DNA of 39,880 bases from IMG/VR virus record IMGVR_UViG_3300032237_000346, positions 1-39,880 of that record; one strand, written 5' to 3'. Positions 7,690 through 21,228 of the stretch are shown piece after piece. Numbering within the stretch: the first letter of the stretch is position 1; every line of letters begins with the position of its first letter. Below the pieces are notes generated by a model. That model saw nothing but the letters and a program-made list of their open reading frames with translations, ran no database searches and was not told where the DNA came from. The position numbers and the translations under genes are program-made. Origin of the DNA: a virus (taxonomy: Duplodnaviria; Caudoviricetes).

Positions 7690-7721
7690 TAGCCCCTCGC
7701 TTAATTGCGGGGGGCTTTTTT
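7690..7721 (+). terminator. Intrinsic terminator ending the late operon
   Basis: agcccctcgc-ttaatt-gcgggggct followed by a T run, at a convergent gene junction. Confidence 0.85.
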
Positions 7722-8443: not shown

Positions 8444-8549
8444 GAACAGCAGTGTACACGAATTTTAATTACATGCTTGTAATTCTTCTCGGCGTGTCTA
8501 ATTATAGAGCAGACTTCGTGTAGTAGTCTCCCCTATTGAAGGAGCAACA
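8444..8549. promoter_or_regulatory. Divergent promoter region with GACACGCCG motif and aattaca/tgtaatt inverted repeat
   Basis: cggcgtgtc at 8490-8498; -10-like TACACT (minus, about 8451-8456) and TAGTCT (plus, 8524-8529). Confidence 0.55.
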
Positions 8550-13760: not shown

Positions 13761-14406
13761 CGAGAAAGATTTACTATGGGAACAGGTCTATAAAGTAGCA
13801 CGCTTATCTGCTGCTAGATGTACCCGTATTCATAGGCACTTAGTCACGGCTGATGATGTGTACCAACACCTTAACCTGTGGGCATTAGAACATTGGCACA
13901 AGATTGAGGAGTGGCAATCGCAAGACTCATTGGTATTTAAACTTAAGCGTACATTCAACAACGAGTCGCAGAAGTTTGCTGCTAAAGAGCGTGCCTATAA
14001 AACTAAGTCATCACCATCGGATGCTTTTTATTACACGCATGAGATTTTGCAGGAGTTACTCAAAGATGTGTGGAACTATGAGCAGTGGACAGTATCTTCA
14101 ACACCTAAAGATGATTTCATTTCTACCTCAAGCAAGCCAAGCGAAGGCATGAATCGTGAGGCTATGTTAAGTGATGTGTCTTTCTGTCTTAAGAAATTAA
14201 ATGAACAGGACAACCTGCTTCTACATCGTAGGTTTGCAAATGGTGGCACTGACATAGATGCATTGGCTATTGAGTACAACATTAGTGATGAGGCAGTACG
14301 CAAGCGTGTGTCTCGTGCACTTACCAAGTTACAAGATAGATTAGGTGGCGAACAACCACAATGGAATAACCGTAGATACCGCAAGCCAGACAGGAGTGAA
14401 GAATGA
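13753..14406 (+). CDS. RNA polymerase sigma-factor-like protein (region 4 HTH)
   Basis: ADDVYQ region-2-like segment; LNEQD..LL..RF...DIDALA.EYNISDEAVRKRVSRAL.KL region 4. Confidence 0.7.
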   Translation: MSDEKDLLWEQVYKVARLSAARCTRIHRHLVTADDVYQHLNLWALEHWHKIEEWQSQDSLVFKLKRTFNNESQKFAAKERAYKTKSSPSDAFYYTHEILQELLKDVWNYEQWTVSSTPKDDFISTSSKPSEGMNREAMLSDVSFCLKKLNEQDNLLLHRRFANGGTDIDALAIEYNISDEAVRKRVSRALTKLQDRLGGEQPQWNNRRYRKPDRSEE

Positions 14407-15209: not shown

Positions 15210-15221
15210 TCTGCCTTAATA

Positions 15222-15310
15222 CATAGAGAAACCCAGCGAGACAGGAGAGAATCGCTGGGTCTTTCTATGCACACCAACCGCTACGCTTCCCCTTCGCAGT
15301 GGCTGGTGTA
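15222..15310. terminator. Two hairpins at the convergence of the replication and early transcripts
   Basis: catagagaaacccagcga/tcgctgggtctttctatg (15222-15269) and acaccaaccgct/agtggctggtgt (15271-15309). Confidence 0.7.
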
Positions 15311-15323
15311 CATGGCAAACCTA

Positions 15324-15665
15324 TCACCCAAGTTTTGGTTCTGTCAAAGCCCAGCCAATCCTTGCTCTAATCTTGTGGCGCATGGGTGGTGTCATCCCGC
15401 CCCACACCCCGTACCTTTCATGGGCTAAGCCCCATTCAAGGCAAGCCATCATGACTGGGCACTCAACACACATCTTTTCAAACATGCGCTCCTCGTCACG
15501 AGTGAACAACTCCTGTGCTGGGTAAAAAATCTCTGTGTCTATACCCTTGCACACAGCCTTGTCCCATAGCCGTTGGTTGTATCTTAAGACATAACCAATC
15601 AACCCCTTGTTGTATCTATTCTTGCTATGAGTAACGCTGGTTACTGTGTGGAACTGTGGCTTCAT
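15324..15665 (-). CDS. whiB: WhiB-family Fe-S transcription factor
   Basis: W..AVCKG.D.EIFYP, C..CPV...CLEW, YGVWGG.T...R. Confidence 0.93.
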   Translation of the reverse strand: MKPQFHTVTSVTHSKNRYNKGLIGYVLRYNQRLWDKAVCKGIDTEIFYPAQELFTRDEERMFEKMCVECPVMMACLEWGLAHERYGVWGGMTPPMRHKIRARIGWALTEPKLG

Positions 15666-15668
15666 GTC

Positions 15669-16112
15669 TTAATACCAACCCTTTGCTAAGTGATGTGCGT
15701 ATGCCTTGCAGATTGCGCCCTTGCCATAGTGCCTGTCAATGTATGCAAGCCCTGCATCTACCTGTCGGTAGCCGTTGCTCGTGGGTTTAATCTTAAGTAT
15801 CTTCCATGTGCGAGGCATGAGTTGGGCTATGCCCAGCGCATGACTTGACTTGTTCTTTGCTTGCGGTCGCCAGTTAGATTCCTCAGTCCACAATTCATAG
15901 AGACATGTGTACTGTTCTAAATCCCCTTGCTTCATCAACCTGTCAATGGCGTAGCGTTGGTAATCGTTCTGATAGTAGGCAATTATCTTGCCCTTTGGTG
16001 GTGATACAAACTGTTGTCCAGTTGGTGTCTTAAGAACTAAGATAAGTCCCAAGATAATTGTTGTAACAATCCATAACCTAGCGTGTGGGTGAATCAGTTT
16101 TAAGTTGAGCAT
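15669..16112 (-). CDS. Membrane-anchored lytic transglycosylase (SLT/lysozyme-like)
   Basis: N-terminal TM; EESNWRP.A, GIAQLMP, YI..HYG, GWY. Confidence 0.85.
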   Translation of the reverse strand: MLNLKLIHPHARLWIVTTIILGLILVLKTPTGQQFVSPPKGKIIAYYQNDYQRYAIDRLMKQGDLEQYTCLYELWTEESNWRPQAKNKSSHALGIAQLMPRTWKILKIKPTSNGYRQVDAGLAYIDRHYGKGAICKAYAHHLAKGWY

Positions 16113-16275
16113 CTAGTTCTGCCTCTGCCTTCTCATGTAGGTAAGTATCTATGGCTTTATTAGATAGTTCATTGTGATTTAATACACAAGCATCGCACAT
16201 CTCAAGCATGTAGTTAATAACCTTTGGGTTAATTACCATGATGTCGCACTTCAAACAAGGCATTAAGATTGTCAT
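16078..16275 (-). CDS. Hypothetical protein with two CxxC motifs
   Basis: CLKC...CDAC; overlapping operon arrangement. Confidence 0.6.
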   Translation of the reverse strand: MTILMPCLKCDIMVINPKVINYMLEMCDACVLNHNELSNKAIDTYLHEKAEAELDAQLKTDSPTR

Positions 16276-16517
16276 AACAACACCTTGCTGTGTGGCTCAG
16301 TGTTATCTAACTTAAGACAAAAATCATGTACTTCATCAAGCCAATCGGGTGATGTAATGAACCTGCCTTCCATGTCTAGCCATGTCAGTTCGTATCCGTC
16401 AAGGTCGTCCCAGTGCAGGATAACCCGTACTTCTTCGCCGTCAATGGTGAGGTCAAAGTCCTTGTCGTACGCTGTGGTTGCCTTGCTCATAGCCCCAGCC
16501 ATAATTGTGTGTGTCAT
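16272..16517 (-). CDS. Hypothetical acidic protein
   Basis: ORF track; abuts neighbouring genes. Confidence 0.65.
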   Translation of the reverse strand: MTHTIMAGAMSKATTAYDKDFDLTIDGEEVRVILHWDDLDGYELTWLDMEGRFITSPDWLDEVHDFCLKLDNTEPHSKVLL

Positions 16518-16655
16518 TTACTGTTCTCCCATCTCATCATGTAGTCGGTCGGGGTCATCTTCTCCGCAACTGCAATCAACCTTGTCACAATCTTCGCATG
16601 GTTGGTTGATACCCAGTGCTACATCATCTCCGTCTAGCCACATTGGTTCACTCAT
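16518..16655 (-). CDS. Hypothetical 45-aa acidic Cys-rich protein
   Basis: MSEPMWLDGDD...CEDCDKVDCSC..DPDRLHD; GACAGGAGA RBS; translated by hand. Confidence 0.65.
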   Translation of the reverse strand: MSEPMWLDGDDVALGINQPCEDCDKVDCSCGEDDPDRLHDEMGEQ

Positions 16656-16810
16656 TTGTTATCTCCTGTCTCAAGACATGCTGTCTCGGCTGTCCATTTG
16701 TTGTTTGTTTTATTTACTTTTTCTTCTGCTTTATCTATTGCATCTTGTTCATCTATTGCAGTAATTACTACTGTTTTAGTAGTGCTTAAAACTACATGAT
16801 ACTTTGGCAT
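16652..16810 (-). CDS. Hypothetical 52-aa protein
   Basis: MPKYHVVL...; GACAGGAGA RBS; translated by hand. Confidence 0.65.
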   Translation of the reverse strand: MPKYHVVLSTTKTVVITAIDEQDAIDKAEEKVNKTNNKWTAETACLETGDNK

Positions 16811-16968
16811 TACTTTTCTCCTGTCTTAAGTAATACACCTAGAGTTTCTAGGTGATGTTCCATTATGCCTTGCCAGTAGTCAAAGTCCTCGTTATTTGTA
16901 GTAGCGTTTCGCTGTGACCTTGCTCTCTTTATTGCGCTGTGTATTCTTTTAATCTGCTTGTCGCTCAT
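16810..16968 (-). CDS. Hypothetical 52-aa protein
   Basis: MSDKQIKR...LKTGEK; TAATG overlap; translated by hand. Confidence 0.6.
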   Translation of the reverse strand: MSDKQIKRIHSAIKRARSQRNATTNNEDFDYWQGIMEHHLETLGVLLKTGEK

Positions 16969-16971
16969 GTC

Positions 16972-17106
16972 TTAAGAACTAATCTCATACGACTGGCACA
17001 CCATCATTACAACATCGTCAAGTTTTGCTATCAAGTCTGATAGTTCTTGCTCGGTCAAGTGCTTGGTCATGCCTTTTGTAAGTGATGACTTCCATACATT
17101 AGCCAT
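16972..17106 (-). CDS. Hypothetical 44-aa protein
   Basis: Start MANVWK with gaggag RBS. Confidence 0.6.
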   Translation of the reverse strand: MANVWKSSLTKGMTKHLTEQELSDLIAKLDDVVMMVCQSYEISS

Positions 17107-17398
17107 TGCTTTTCTCCTCTGTCTTAAGTACTGACATGAGTGACTTAAGGTGGTCAAGTGCCTGTTGCTTGCGCTTGTAGTTAGTGCCCAGCATTTCGTT
17201 AGCCTTGCGTAGCGTGCTACCTTTGGCAGTCATCTTCATTCCTGTCTTAAGTTCTAACTCAATCCAACTGATGAGAGATAGCAGGATGTATAAGTCCACG
17301 CCTGACCCGCTTGCGCTGGTCATCTCTCCGTTCTCGTTGAATGTCATGTGGTTAGCGCCGTTGGTTAATGCTTCTAGTGTTTCTTCGGGTAGTGCCAT
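17099..17398 (-). CDS. Hypothetical protein
   Basis: Start MALPEE with GACAGGAGA RBS. Confidence 0.65.
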   Translation of the reverse strand: MALPEETLEALTNGANHMTFNENGEMTSASGSGVDLYILLSLISWIELELKTGMKMTAKGSTLRKANEMLGTNYKRKQQALDHLKSLMSVLKTEEKSNG

Positions 17399-17399
17399 G

Positions 17400-17681
17400 T
17401 TAGTTATCTCCTGTCTTGGTGTATTTGGTACGCAATTCATTGTCTTGATAGCAAGCATGGCATAGTGGAATGTCATCATCTATTTTTCCTTCTAGACACA
17501 TAGCCATGTCACAACCCTTACATTTTTTTATTGAGTTATCTTCTGTCTTAAGTAACAATTCGTTATTGAGTTTTGATTTGATGCTGTTGGTAAGTGTGTT
17601 ATCCCACATACCGCCGTTGTCGTTGATTGTTTTGTTGATTGAGTAGAGTACCCAGTCAATCTCTTGTGCTGTTAGTTTCAT
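17400..17681 (-). CDS. Hypothetical protein with C-terminal CxxC pairs
   Basis: GACAGGAGA RBS; directly downstream of a promoter. Confidence 0.65.
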   Translation of the reverse strand: MKLTAQEIDWVLYSINKTINDNGGMWDNTLTNSIKSKLNNELLLKTEDNSIKKCKGCDMAMCLEGKIDDDIPLCHACYQDNELRTKYTKTGDN

Positions 17682-17712
17682 TGTGTTTCTCCTGTCGTTA
17701 GTTGGTAGTTGT

Positions 17713-17767
17713 AGTTAATCGGTTGTGCTATCTGATGTCAAGCATTTGTTGTGTGATGTTGGTCACA
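17713..17767 (-). promoter_or_regulatory. Sigma-A-type promoter (TTGACA-17-TTAACT) with upstream CRP-type box
   Basis: tgtcaa 17736-17741, agttaa 17713-17718, TGTGAtgttggTCACA 17752-17767. Confidence 0.75.
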
Positions 17768-17774
17768 TTGTGTC

Positions 17775-17936
17775 TTAAGGCAGAGGGTATCCAGCAGGAC
17801 ATCCGATTTGCTCTACTAGACATGACTCGGATACATCCCACACACCTAGTGCGCTTGATACTCCGATGATTGCGGTAAGTATTAAGACATAAATAAAGAT
17901 TGCTCTGACCAGTCTGCCTCGGCGTGTTAGTTTCAT
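17775..17936 (-). CDS. Hypothetical 53-aa membrane protein (MKLTRRGRLVR...)
   Basis: LTRRGR plus TM helix; translated by hand. Confidence 0.65.
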   Translation of the reverse strand: MKLTRRGRLVRAIFIYVLILTAIIGVSSALGVWDVSESCLVEQIGCPAGYPLP

Positions 17937-18067
17937 TTGTTTACCTGCTTAGTCATAAGACTTGAAGCAATCAAACGCAAAATCTTTTTGTCGTGATTAC
18001 TTAAGACATAATCTTTTGCATGTTGGCATTGGTTGAGTGGGATTAGGCAGTCTCCGCAAATTGTCAT
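17933..18067 (-). CDS. Hypothetical 44-aa protein (MTICGDCLIP...C.H)
   Basis: ATGA overlap; translated by hand. Confidence 0.55.
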   Translation of the reverse strand: MTICGDCLIPLNQCQHAKDYVLSNHDKKILRLIASSLMTKQVNK

Positions 18068-18078
18068 GTCTTAAGTCA

Positions 18079-18333
18079 CTACCCTTCCAGCGTGTAGCAT
18101 TTAGGGCAGAGGGTGAGTCCGTTATCCTCGCGCTTTTGGTAGTTCTCTGTCCATTCTGAACAACTTTCGCACTCCTCAGCATCAACTTCTTCGCTGGCTG
18201 GGATGATTGAAAGTTGGGCGGTGAACTCTTGGAAGATTTCATCCGCTGTCATTTCATCGGCAGAATAAAACTCGTAGTTGATACTCTCGAAACTTGGCTC
18301 GTGAAGAATCTCTATGCTGTACTTGTGCGCCAT
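18079..18333 (-). CDS. Hypothetical acidic protein with C-terminal zinc ribbon
   Basis: Start MAHKY with gaagg RBS; CESC...CPKC. Confidence 0.65.
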   Translation of the reverse strand: MAHKYSIEILHEPSFESINYEFYSADEMTADEIFQEFTAQLSIIPASEEVDAEECESCSEWTENYQKREDNGLTLCPKCYTLEG

Positions 18334-18334
18334 G

Positions 18335-18523
18335 TTAGTTACCTTCTGTCTTAAGTTCGAAACCCATGTAGTAACCGTCTTTGATGTCGTTCCACATCCA
18401 TTTTTCTGCGTTGCTTGTCCAGCGCTCCACATCTACGGTTCGGCTGACTCCGTTCTGTGTGACTGTGTAGGTGGTGCCTTCTGTCGTGATTGTGTCCCCG
18501 TTAGGGTGTGTCCATGTTGCCAT
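18335..18523 (-). CDS. Hypothetical protein
   Basis: Start MATWTH with GACAGGAGA RBS. Confidence 0.65.
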   Translation of the reverse strand: MATWTHPNGDTITTEGTTYTVTQNGVSRTVDVERWTSNAEKWMWNDIKDGYYMGFELKTEGN

Positions 18524-18545
18524 TGTGCTGTCTCCTGTCGTGCTC

Positions 18546-18636
18546 GGTGGTGAGTATCTCTCGCCTACCTTGTGCCCTAATGGTGCCTTGCTCACCTCGT
18601 GCTCGTCAAGCATTTAGGGCTGTGATTTACATCACA
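18546..18636 (-). promoter_or_regulatory. CRP-type box + TTGACG + three-way junction + leader hairpin (element A)
   Basis: TGTGAtttacaTCACA 18621-18636; gccctaa/ttagggc stem 18574-18620; hairpin 18546-18569. Confidence 0.7.
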
Positions 18637-18650
18637 TTTTTTATTCTGTA

Positions 18651-18785
18651 TTAAGACACGCTCACAATTCTTACCGATTGCTTAAGGCTCTCGGCTATCT
18701 TGCGAAACTCTGCGAAGTTCTCCGCGCTGAGTGTGTTTTGAGATTCCAAACCGCTCCCGCTGTATAAGTTGAAAGTAATCTTCAT
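18651..18785 (-). CDS. Hypothetical 44-aa protein
   Basis: MKITFNLYSGSG...; ggaggtg RBS; ATGA overlap; translated by hand. Confidence 0.6.
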   Translation of the reverse strand: MKITFNLYSGSGLESQNTLSAENFAEFRKIAESLKQSVRIVSVS

Positions 18786-19159
18786 GCTGTCACCTCCGCT
18801 TCTGTCTTAATACCTAAGAACATTTGTTCTCCGTTGCTGTAAGTCCATTGGTTGGTGTCAGGATTCCAAAGGTAGAAATACTCCTCGCCTGCGTTAAAGT
18901 TTCGCACCCAATCGGTAGTGTCAAGAAAGGTGCGGGCGCTGTCGCTTGGTGTGCTGTATGCCCCCGCCTTGGTTTCTTCTATCGTGTCCATGAGTGCAGA
19001 AAATCCACCAAGGGCGATGAGTTGTTCTGCCTGTTCCTTGCTGTTGTAGTTCTGTATTAAGCCAGCACCTACCCCCTCAGGGTATCCGTCCCAGTGGCAA
19101 TAAATTGCCTTAACTGTGCCGTTTTGTGACTTAATACCGATAGTGCTTCTTGTTGCCAT
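18782..19159 (-). CDS. Conserved phage early protein (IYCHWDGYP family)
   Basis: MATRSTI...AIYCHWDGYPEGVG..L...EEYFYLW; GACGGGAGA RBS. Confidence 0.75.
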   Translation of the reverse strand: MATRSTIGIKSQNGTVKAIYCHWDGYPEGVGAGLIQNYNSKEQAEQLIALGGFSALMDTIEETKAGAYSTPSDSARTFLDTTDWVRNFNAGEEYFYLWNPDTNQWTYSNGEQMFLGIKTEAEVTA

Positions 19160-19182
19160 GTTTTTGTTCTCCCGTCTTAATA

Positions 19183-19275
19183 CATGAGCGAGGATTTCCC
19201 GCTTCATGTCGTGCCCTAATTGAGTCATGAACTCGCGCCCTCTGTCAAGGGTTTAGGGCTGTGAGTTGCCTCACA
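19183..19275 (-). promoter_or_regulatory. CRP-type box + TTGACA + three-way junction + leader hairpin (element B)
   Basis: TGTGAgttgccTCACA 19260-19275; stem 19213-19259; hairpin 19183-19208. Confidence 0.7.
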
Positions 19276-19289
19276 TTTTGGTTTTTGTC

Positions 19290-19598
19290 TTAAGCACTAA
19301 TCTTGAGCAACTTCTTCCAAGCCTCGTGCGCTATGTTCTGAGTCTCGTTGAAATCTAACTCGCTGAGTTCTGACTTAAGTAGTCGGCGGTTATACGCCTC
19401 ATCTGCTGAGGCTTGAGTTCCTCTGACCCATAGGGCGATAACTTTATTTCTTAATTCTGCGGGGATAATCTGCATTAAGTCATGAAATGACTCATGCTCG
19501 TCCTTCTGTGCTCGTATCTGCTGACTCATGCGCCATGTTGTAGGGGTTCCAAACCCTCCTTCTTGAGCCTCGTTCCATTGCTTACGGATTGCGTTCAT
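19290..19598 (-). CDS. Hypothetical protein
   Basis: GACAGGAGA RBS; 102 aa. Confidence 0.7.
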   Translation of the reverse strand: MNAIRKQWNEAQEGGFGTPTTWRMSQQIRAQKDEHESFHDLMQIIPAELRNKVIALWVRGTQASADEAYNRRLLKSELSELDFNETQNIAHEAWKKLLKISA

Positions 19599-19622
19599 AG
19601 TTCTGTTCTCCTGTCTTAAGTC

Positions 19623-19695
19623 ACAAGGTGAGACTCTCTCGCCTTGCTAGTGCCCCCGTTGGTCGTGAACCTTTGCCGACTTATCGGGCGGGGGC
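19623..19695 (-). ncRNA. Predicted three-way junction + leader hairpin (element C, no CRP box)
   Basis: gcccccg/cgggggc stem 19652-19695 with two inner hairpins; hairpin 19623-19647; same architecture as elements A and B. Confidence 0.55.
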
Positions 19696-19703
19696 TTTCT
19701 GTC

Positions 19704-19844
19704 TTAAGCCTTAACTTTTGAGATTTGGCGCTTGAGTTTCTTCTCTAACTTTTCGAGGCGCTGGCTTCTCTCGTCCCCGTGAGTGCCTACACTGTCGAAC
19801 TGAATCGCTGAGAGTATGTCGCGCAATTCTTTTTCTGTGAACAT
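19704..19844 (-). CDS. Hypothetical 46-aa protein
   Basis: Start MFTEKEL with GACAGGAGA RBS. Confidence 0.65.
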   Translation of the reverse strand: MFTEKELRDILSAIQFDSVGTHGDERSQRLEKLEKKLKRQISKVKA

Positions 19845-19912
19845 TTCTTCTCCTGTCTTAAGTAAGGGAGGGGGCGGGCTTTCCGCCCCTCTCCTTTCTT
19901 CTGTCTTAAGTC

Positions 19913-20554
19913 TTAAGCCTCCTTGAAGATTTCTTCGCATGTGTTGCAGGTCACACCGCTTTCAAGGACACCGCGAGAGAGGCGGATTACATTTTCACAT
20001 TCGCACATTGCCTTGATTAGGTTGGTGTTTCGTCCCTTAGGCTTGGCGGTTCCCTCGCCTGTCGCGGTAAGTTCTAGCGCCTTGGTGAGAATTGCAAGCG
20101 CCTTGCTCCAGCGCTTGGCTCCGAACTCGGTGAGCGTGGTGCTCGCGTGTCCCTTGCCCTTGATTTCCTCGGTCTTAAGACCTAACGCCTCGGCTTGTGT
20201 CTTAAATTTGGCGTTATGGTATTGGTTCGCGCTGCAATCTTGGATGCCGTTAGCGTGGTTGAGAGAGTGAGCAACCTCATGCAACAGGGTGCTCAATAGT
20301 TCTGCCCCTGTTGTGAAATGCTCAAGGTTGAAGGCAATCTCATGGAAAGATTCTGTCCCTGTTGTCCATGGGGTGTAAGGGGTGAAGTGTCCCTTGGCAC
20401 CCTTGAGGTTACGGGTCACGAGAATTGTGGCGCGGGGTGCGCCTGTTTCTGTCTTAATCAACTCGTGAGCCTGTTCTAACGCCTTGGTGAGGGTGCTTAG
20501 CGCCTCTGCCTTGCTTGCCTTGTTTCCTGTCTTAAGTGCTGTTGTTGCTGTCAT
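19913..20554 (-). CDS. SprT-like zinc metalloprotease domain protein
   Basis: TLLHEVAH (HExxH), YHN..FK..AE..GL, C-terminal CEC...CNTC. Confidence 0.8.
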   Translation of the reverse strand: MTATTALKTGNKASKAEALSTLTKALEQAHELIKTETGAPRATILVTRNLKGAKGHFTPYTPWTTGTESFHEIAFNLEHFTTGAELLSTLLHEVAHSLNHANGIQDCSANQYHNAKFKTQAEALGLKTEEIKGKGHASTTLTEFGAKRWSKALAILTKALELTATGEGTAKPKGRNTNLIKAMCECENVIRLSRGVLESGVTCNTCEEIFKEA

Positions 20555-20599
20555 TTCTTGATTCTCCCGTCATCGGCTTAAATCCTTGTGACTTAAGCA

Positions 20600-20673
20600 C
20601 TAGGAGATTTCTACACTACCTCCCGCCATGCCCTCAACATTTGGCGCCATTTGGCGGTGTGATTCTCATCACA
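20600..20673 (-). promoter_or_regulatory. First early promoter region with CRP-type box
   Basis: TGTGAttctcaTCACA 20658-20673, a tandem cgccaaatg duplication, then TTGAGG on the minus strand. Confidence 0.6.
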
Positions 20674-21029
20674 TTTTGGAAGTGAGCGTGAGCCTGAGCG
20701 TGTAAGCCTGTGCCGTCTCGCATAGTGAGACAGGCAAGCGAGCAGGCTCATGCTTCCCCGATGCCCCCCGCGATTAAGGGCTCGGCTGTTCTAGTAATAG
20801 CCCTCAAGCGAACTAGCCCAATCAAGCACACCAAGCAAGCAAGCAAGCAGACAGGGCGAGCATTTGCAGGGCTTGTTTATTAGGGGAGAGAATGACAATG
20901 AACGAACCCAGGGTTTTTAAATATGCGTGCAAGTATGTATATATGTATGTAGTCACATAAGTTTGATAGGGGAGGGTGGTTCTGACCAGCACTTTTAGTA
21001 CAGTGGCGTAGGTAACAAAAAATACTTTA

Positions 21030-21080: not shown

Positions 21081-21228
21081 GCTTTACATATTACGCCCTA
21101 CCGCTAAGCATTGGCAGCCCGAAGGCTGCCCCTACATTACGCCCTAACCTACGGCTTCCGCCTTGGGGCTACAGCCTACGGTTAGGAAAGGATAAACTGC
21201 GATTCTAACATAAAGCGGAATCGCTACT

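Follow-up and report, generated by a model that had tools for sequence, protein, structure and literature searches.

What brings the early phase to a close in small lytic phages that have no repressor is mostly unexplained, and this question is raised by the early gene block of IMG/VR virus record IMGVR_UViG_3300032237_000346 (Duplodnaviria; Caudoviricetes). The analyzed stretch, here termed the window, is the complete virus record of 39,880 bases, and all coordinates are window positions. It encodes terminase, portal, capsid, and replication genes, a sigma factor, and whiB, and no integrase or repressor match was obtained among the 56 window proteins scanned. Its early block (15.2-20.7 kb) comprises about 19 small minus-strand genes, reaching from a gene for a SprT-like protein to whiB. 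An earlier note on this DNA had described five signals in the block, i.e., CRP-type boxes, three-way RNA junctions with leader hairpins, a uniform extended ribosome-binding site, a terminal hairpin with an antisense loop, and a dense DNA octamer, and had read them as one multilayer control circuit. All five are present at the place described and exceed chance (four boxes versus 0.08 expected, 45 octamers versus 1.8 expected, and a z-score of -6.7 for the fold of the hairpin unit), and the elements co-occur and covary in related phages, as the note had expected of a genuine system. Comparison with these relatives sorts the sequence signals into three separable modules: an expression cassette, a small RNA that we name anti-tag RNA, and an octamer array. 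We consider it probable, judging from comparative sequence data, that a conserved loop of this RNA pairs in trans with tagged early messages and blocks ribosome loading on them as a group, making the anti-tag RNA a candidate reader that ends the early phase.

Loop and tag change together across clades

The same extended ribosome-binding tag stands before about half of the early genes (about ten). Its exact form, GACAGGAGA, occurs seven times on the early strand of the whole window, and the one complement forms the loop of the terminal hairpin (15240-15248). The features of tag and RNA are the following:

15218..15311, minus strand: predicted small RNA of ~95 nt with two hairpins (anti-tag RNA), its ends deduced from the promoter and a U-rich tail
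15222..15269, minus strand: 3' terminator-like hairpin with 18-nt arms (15222-15239 / 15252-15269), its loop (15240-15251) being the exact tag complement; from fold and complement search
15269..15311, minus strand: 5' hairpin with a purine-rich loop (15287-15295); from fold
15318..15347, minus strand: predicted sigmaA promoter of the anti-tag RNA, with the -35 at 15342-15347, an 18-bp spacer within the last whiB codons, an extended -10 at 15318-15323, and no CRP box; from sequence
16662..19857, minus strand: seven exact tags at 16662, 16817, 17407, 17688, 18531, 19607, and 19849, each ahead of a start codon; exact match
14389..14397, plus strand: the single tag-like site outside the block, before an open reading frame (ORF) of 53 aa at 14403; loop duplex of -18.1 kcal/mol, the sole case among 34 plus-strand starts

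Calculated duplexes between the loop and the start regions reached -14 kcal/mol or lower at 10 of 19 early starts compared with one of 34 plus-strand starts (one row that was not a start had been dropped). The pairing spans the Shine-Dalgarno core in every register seen, and the phage late starts with AGGAG pair weakly with the loop.

Further evidence for the proposed pairing comes from relatives. We compared loop and tag in those distinct loci, 85 in number, whose DNA extends 3 kb or more upstream of whiB. The loop CCTGTC is found together with the tag GACAGGA in 56 loci (367 matching versus 8 non-matching sites), and the loop CCAGTC, present in two sister clades, together with the tag GACTGGA in the other 29 (82 versus 1 site). 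In all 85 of these distinct long loci, the majority tag can be told from the loop letter, one loop standing against several separate sites per genome; a third variant of the pair was not found within the family among 12 loci screened. In parallel, the stems of the anti-tag RNA covary, showing double changes at 17 of 23 consensus pairs in 40 sequences with G-U pairs favoring the early strand, and the loop is fixed across relatives while the stem sequences differ. Downstream of whiB, all 172 loci examined have a stable hairpin bearing the loop core, the criterion being a loop core that lies within a stable 53-nt fold; at the dNMP-kinase junction, the hairpin is present in 49 of 61 rows. The 99-nt unit of the window folds better on the minus strand.

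The window genome shows synteny to E7 and F5, two cultured phages of Planktophila (terL 45% identical), which with Planktophila LanE-43 represent a cultured phage-host pair of abundant freshwater bacteria (PMC10202952); by virtue of this synteny its host likely belongs to the Nanopelagicales. Within the E7 family the loop has moved to the opposite strand. Of 80 loci, 15 were left out, their upstream DNA being missing; in 62 of the other 65 the loop heads the replication operon, on 24 distinct hairpins with unrelated stems. Its antisense polarity was kept after this relocation. Pairing in cis looks strained there, given a long stem and a linker of only 5-9 nt before the next tag.

Regarding its origin, promoter-like elements precede the anti-tag RNA in 88 of 94 distinct upstream regions, compared with 8.7% in shuffles, and none of these 94 regions contains a CRP box. 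The promoter overlaps the whiB stop, and the predicted start is the first paired base. The anti-tag RNA would thus be made from its own CRP-independent promoter. Of the earlier suggestion that a 3'-derived RNA turns translation off, the antisense loop has gained strong comparative support, and the 3' derivation gives way to the predicted promoter. Rfam returned no match at the gathering score in the window, nor at E up to 5 in the block, except for two chance eukaryotic matches. The purine-rich loop of the 5' hairpin, which reads like a Shine-Dalgarno sequence and varies little across the two tag types, is found in 25 of the 56 loci with the CCTGTC loop and in 25 of the 29 with the CCAGTC loop. 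The idea that it opens the leader of the replication operon was discarded, as it had just 6 bp of support and local pairing accounts for the same bases.

A parallel exists in cluster K mycobacteriophages, which carry 13-nt start-associated sequences (SAS), with one reverse copy in four phages; the original report left open whether RNA or protein reads them (PMC3203893), and their function was stated to be unknown in 2011, 2024, and 2025 (PMC3203893, PMC11373665, PMC12699233). The single reverse SAS of Adephagia falls in the loop of a long hairpin, with a second hairpin in front of it; the element occupies the gap between genes 92 and 93, which is reported as the start of late transcription (PMC11373665). 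In total, 193 records match the Adephagia hairpin region. This analogue is real, not universal. As a side observation, the late start in Adephagia (L293:28600-28720, record ~58,600-58,720) and L296-L305 is marked by a conserved -10 (TAGACT), a small hairpin, and long hairpins, one or two in number; the tip of the last of these hairpins varies by genus.

Expression cassettes with CRP-type boxes and three-way junctions

The four boxes (TGTGA-N6-TCACA) of the window all lie within the block, where box, junction, leader hairpin, and tag are stacked in a single cassette. Cassettes and a promoterless unit were delineated as follows:

20563..20673, minus strand: first cassette, with CRP-type box 20658-20673, probable -35 20632-20637, tag variant 20563-20571, and no junction
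19607..19695, minus strand: promoterless junction 19652-19695, leader hairpin, and an octamer fused to the tag (19607-19619)
19168..19275, minus strand: full cassette, with CRP-type box 19260-19275, junction 19213-19259 (-35 19243-19248, -10 19219-19224), leader hairpin, and tag variant
18531..18636, minus strand: full cassette, with CRP-type box 18621-18636, junction 18574-18620 (-35 18604-18609, -10 18580-18585), leader hairpin, and tag 18531-18539
17688..17767, minus strand: linear cassette, with CRP-type box 17752-17767, -35 17736-17741, weak -10, and tag 17688-17696

The signals are consequently not independent of each other, contrary to the earlier note; in addition, 163 of 661 early-strand octamers in 41 distinct blocks overlap the tag. 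The cassette stands before a wide range of unrelated genes (73 distinct cassette-gene pairs), and its leader hairpins lead into the tag without a U run.

An alignment of 266 box contexts revealed the order box, 10-11 bases, -35 hexamer, 18-base spacer, and weak -10. The box center lies near -55.5 relative to a weak, predicted sigmaA promoter. Of 203 strict boxes, 144 have a -35-like T[TA]G[AG] 9-11 nt downstream. Strict boxes are found in the block of 75 of 79 sprT loci and outside the block in none, this set including repeats of near-identical phages. They are present in 51 of the 56 loci of the window's tag type versus 0 of the 29 of the sister-clade type, which retains the RNA; two short loci of the sister tag type have one box apiece. 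The known host encodes one Crp (cds1336) with an SRETV recognition helix matching the box, and a host Crp dimer likely binds there. Rex as the reader was rejected, since the spacer positions misfit its consensus. For comparison, mycobacterial CRP sites are centered at -58.5, -65.5, and -81.5 (PMC13720381). No adenylate cyclase is found among the ten "cyclase" and five "adenylate" matches in the host table (annotation of one host, with table cells covered up to 400 characters), and no Hfq is annotated in the same table.

In approximately one quarter of the box contexts, the stretch from the box to position -1 folds into a three-way junction, one loop of which holds the -35; the -10 lies in the other stem, on its 3' strand. 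The outer stem closes in 65 of 66 unselected contexts with box plus GCC, and purine-C follows in all 65. Two of the three junctions of the window (18574-18620, 19213-19259, and 19652-19695) fold as drawn; the minimum-energy fold of the 18574 junction deviates inside the outer stem. A -10 hexamer is present in 46 of 51 box-linked copies versus 0 of 43 distinct promoterless copies, which mostly lack a -35 as well. Of 69 cases, 62 have a leader hairpin beginning 1-4 nt past the junction; among them are 18 of the 19 promoterless copies with a tag downstream, so that the junction fold is kept without the promoter. Since the junction ends at the predicted start, it is absent from its own transcript and can be present solely in read-through RNA. 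A search with a model built from the box-linked junctions added nine copies from E7-family loci, and 16 sister-clade loci and 3 cluster K loci gave none; as the model missed the promoterless copy of the window, these counts refer to the box-linked type only. A covariance model from the mixed junction alignment kept just 3 pairs and was dropped.

The geometry of the junction recalls the acceptor-T arm of tRNA. It has a G-first stem of 7-8 bp, 11-12 nt to a 7-nt loop (95 of 95 parsed copies, the parse allowing 11-14 nt), a junction A (94 of 95), and a purine-C tail (65 of 65 unselected copies); the loop is not a strict T-loop. In tRNA-like RNase P substrates, about 12 nt separate a 7-nt loop from the end of the G-first 7-8-bp stem, and purine-C follows. 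By this analogy we suggest, with moderate confidence, that the junction is an RNase P processing site. The table for the Planktophila host lists RNase P, J, E/G, and III and no RNase Z (PMC10202952 supplement), and cleavage behind the junction by RNase Z was set aside on this account.

Octamer array and SprT-like gene

The third module comprises a short DNA word and the first gene of the early arm:

15584..20535, both strands: array of 24 TTAAGACA octamers, each making up one half of a pseudo-palindrome of 12 bp; located within and outside coding DNA
19913..20554, minus strand: SprT-like zinc metalloprotease gene (PF10263) with invariant HEXXH and a C-terminal four-cysteine motif

Besides the 24 octamers of the 5.5-kb block (19 of them on the early strand), 21 of the 45 in the window lie outside. 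In 72 of the 79 sprT loci, TTAAGACA or its shifted form outnumbers all other 8-mers of the block, and the 7 exceptions have a block of less than 1.6 kb. More than half of the 661 early-strand octamers (379) are situated inside coding DNA, and a G at the mirror position was found in 248 of the 282 non-coding ones. Leu-Lys-Thr is encoded 274 times compared with 26 expected, in 238 cases in the single spelling that creates the octamer; selection thus acts on the DNA word. An action at the RNA level was considered and rejected, reverse copies being common and the flanks palindromic.

Sister clades have GTTTAAAC or GTTTAGAC instead, along with a diverged SprT-like first gene. In L155, L159, and their relatives, this first early gene is SprT-like without an evident HEXXH, the C-terminal cysteine cluster being present; this cluster can be regarded as the conserved part of the protein, because it is kept in these sister-clade proteins. 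Among the 42 long loci of the E7 family, the 4 with a SprT match have 15-18 octamer copies, and the 7 that reach terL have no SprT match and at most 6, two of them with 10 copies of the shifted word. Taken together, the octamer likely constitutes a separate DNA site array that is read by the SprT-like product. The top structural match of the SprT-like model was chain 6mdx_A, a DNA-protein-crosslink protease (Z 9.0, rmsd 3.1, 102 residues), with the C-terminal part barely covered; Foldseek gave no match to this model at E 0.001.

The early arm ends with two further genes of recognizable family:

15324..15665, minus strand: whiB-like gene, the last of the early arm (PF02467, E 4.8e-15)
15669..16112, minus strand: transglycosylase SLT gene (PF01464)

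Outside the block, the word GGCGTGTC (GACACGCC on the opposite strand; either orientation) and a conserved leader hairpin precede the replication operon (8492-8545, plus strand), and the same arrangement lies upstream of the exonuclease gene in 51 other distinct loci. The word resembles the WhiA site GACAC. WhiA is listed for the Planktophila host (PMC10202952 supplement), and WhiB is encoded by the phage. A conserved multi-hairpin leader with TACG/TTCG loops (21100-21228, plus strand) precedes the terminase gene and opens with GCCCTAA as the junctions do. Between 7760 and 8400 (minus strand), several small cysteine-rich ORFs seemingly run leftward from the replication promoter region to a two-way terminator at ~7690-7720. 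A tRNA-like stretch was seen directly upstream of terL in L078; ARAGORN found no tRNA in the window. Scans of GTDB gave no host link, neither with sprT nor with terL, the latter returning two contigs in unrelated metagenome-assembled genomes (MAGs), neither of which shows the tag system. These contigs, the 41.9-kb L306 and L307 (terL 45-52% identical), lie inside MAGs labelled Methylococcus and Novosphingobium and are probably mis-binned.

Competing readings and known systems

In the model that we favor, the tagged genes would sit in mobile expression cassettes, with a host Crp dimer acting at the box near -55.5 of a weak sigmaA promoter and the sign of regulation going either way. The 5' leader hairpin would protect the message, and the junction in read-through RNA would provide a tRNA-like processing site freeing each unit, most simply by RNase P. 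The anti-tag RNA, expressed from its own promoter after whiB, would pair with the tags and silence the tagged genes together; the SprT-like product would read the octamer array apart from the tag system. That the pairing represses, and that this repression times the end of the early phase, is what we infer from the sequences.

Several observations weigh against this model. Three E7-family loci have no loop, and the loop-bearing operon of this family itself uses the tag, for which plain repression offers no neat explanation. The A-to-T switch may be a single historical event, and the number of its origins is not countable from the terL tree because this tree is mosaic. The 51 junction copies with 92.5% of cells paired and double changes in 11 of 15 pairs had been chosen for pairing, and a G-U asymmetry is seen in P2 and absent in P1/P3 (6 G-U versus 11 A-C). 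With respect to the octamer, L250, L251, and L253 have 9-10 copies of CTTAAGAC and no SprT match. The link to cluster K is partial: in 11 folded records chosen to span the ranking of the 193, an exact antisense stretch was found in 4 (in 3 within the minimum-energy loop), a CU-rich variant loop in 3, and neither in 4, and no antisense loop was detected in the right halves of Pixie and TM4, which hold 18 and 10 SAS there.

The E7-family operon, whose loop heads genes that bear the tag themselves, lends itself to the opposite reading, in which pairing promotes or licenses translation; the RNA might, for example, tether the ribosome or a factor via its 5' purine-rich loop, or it might sense early messages and thereby open the operon that comes next. 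The Shine-Dalgarno-like 5' loop, being kept across both tag types, fits this as well. However, 31 of 56 loci of the one type and 4 of 29 of the other lack this loop, the pairing would cover the Shine-Dalgarno core in each register seen, and the Adephagia element sits at the late start, past the early genes; we regard a licensing role as unlikely. Somewhat less probable still is the single five-layer circuit of the earlier note, in which host cyclic AMP (cAMP) or carbon status gates early transcription and the octamer marks the first-entering DNA. All five signals do cluster in the block in the window's clade, and the host has a Crp with the SRETV helix. Among relatives, however, the layers separate: the sister-clade loci retain the RNA without strict boxes, and E7 and F5 retain boxes, junctions, tag, and loop without the octamer array. 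In addition, the box position is not textbook, and gating by cAMP or carbon is unsupported, with Crp and no adenylate cyclase annotated among the host proteins and with cAMP in M. smegmatis being higher on glucose than on acetate, the reverse of E. coli logic (PMC13720381). A marking of first-entering DNA is likewise unsupported, 21 of the 45 octamers being located outside the block and the array following a SprT-like gene.

We attach a very low probability to the view that the repeats are PeSL-like recombination cassettes from local duplication and the loop a fragment captured in an ordinary two-way terminator. The occurrence of the cassette before so many unrelated genes is in line with it, as is the position of the hairpin at the convergence of the two arms. 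Against it, the loop is invariant on unrelated stems, switches with the tag, and stays antisense after the strand move, and L047, L112, and L129 have a plain terminator at the convergence plus the loop hairpin at another place. The co-switching largely refutes this explanation for the loop; the cassette may nevertheless have spread by such means. Equally improbable, in our estimate, is that the CU-rich loop mimics an anti-Shine-Dalgarno sequence aimed mainly at host messages for host shut-off. Its core pairs with any AGGAG, and some cluster K loops are generically CU-rich, but the loop follows the phage's own tag letter, which lies outside the Shine-Dalgarno core, and the weak pairing of the late AGGAG starts is at odds with a general target.

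A broader generalization of repression by the anti-tag RNA, tentative and in our view somewhat doubtful, would be an actinophage-wide address-and-reader timer, in which a private early tag is silenced as a set by an RNA of the next stage, which would explain the SAS; in the present phage, the units would be freed by a tRNA-like RNase P site on the bases of a Crp-dependent promoter. What SAS do in cluster K mycobacteriophages, which are in therapeutic use, has been an open question since 2011 (PMC3203893). The natural single-base swap of loop and tag makes the question directly testable, and two systems are at hand, E7/F5 on LanE-43 and Adephagia in M. smegmatis with RNA-seq deposited (GSE271014; PMC11373665). 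Moreover, an orthogonal pair of tag and RNA could become a tool for group control of translation in a host without annotated Hfq.

Each of the modules has a counterpart among known systems. The stoperators of mycobacteriophage L5 are asymmetric sites bound by the phage immunity repressor. Like these, the octamer is a short DNA site in many copies, oriented preferentially with transcription and frequently close to gene junctions; unlike them, it is pseudo-palindromic, lies by more than half in coding DNA, has no repressor match, and co-occurs with a SprT-like gene. The box is the same TGTGA-N6-TCACA site as in actinobacterial CRP regulons, and the host Crp helix fits it, but its center near -55.5 and a host without annotated adenylate cyclase differ from the mycobacterial examples described in the available text (PMC13720381). 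With the PeSL cassettes of T4-type phages, which lie among small non-essential genes and are able to drive gene shuffling, with recombination between copies giving mini-circles, our cassettes share the repetition of a sigma70-type promoter with a stem-loop among small genes; the PeSL stem-loops are terminators, in contrast to the combination of CRP-type box, junction over the promoter, 5' hairpin, and matching antisense RNA found here (PMC2839356).

The tag itself resembles SAS, likewise a one-way extended ribosome-site motif that stands 3-9 nt ahead of the start in some of the non-structural genes and has one reverse copy (7 sense and 1 reverse in the window), conserved beyond 16S pairing and often linked to a promoter with an inverted repeat (PMC3203893). 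The window tag is a different 9-mer, though, having only the AGGAG core in common and not matching the 13-nt SAS consensus, and the ESAS repeat is not a CRP box and was judged not to pair in RNA. The SAS papers, in the portions available, do not report the reverse copy as a hairpin loop, and no description of a system of tag plus anti-tag RNA was found in the open-access literature. Finally, the C4 antisense RNA of P1/P7 is a structured phage RNA whose loops occlude ribosome-binding sites, and host RNase P cuts this three-stem RNA at the foot of its outer stem (PMC5320573). Like C4, the anti-tag loop complements ribosome-binding sites of the phage's own messages. Unlike C4 as described there, the anti-tag RNA has no Rfam match, two hairpins instead of three stems, a single seed loop in place of a' and b', and, where C4 acts on an antirepressor operon, a target set of about ten tagged early genes; the three-stem fold lies in the target cassettes, the regulator being without it, and RNase P maturation is replaced by a predicted promoter starting on the first paired base. 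As the best-supported new element of this locus, the anti-tag RNA thus appears to work like a multi-target antisense regulator in its own right rather than as a member of the C4 family.

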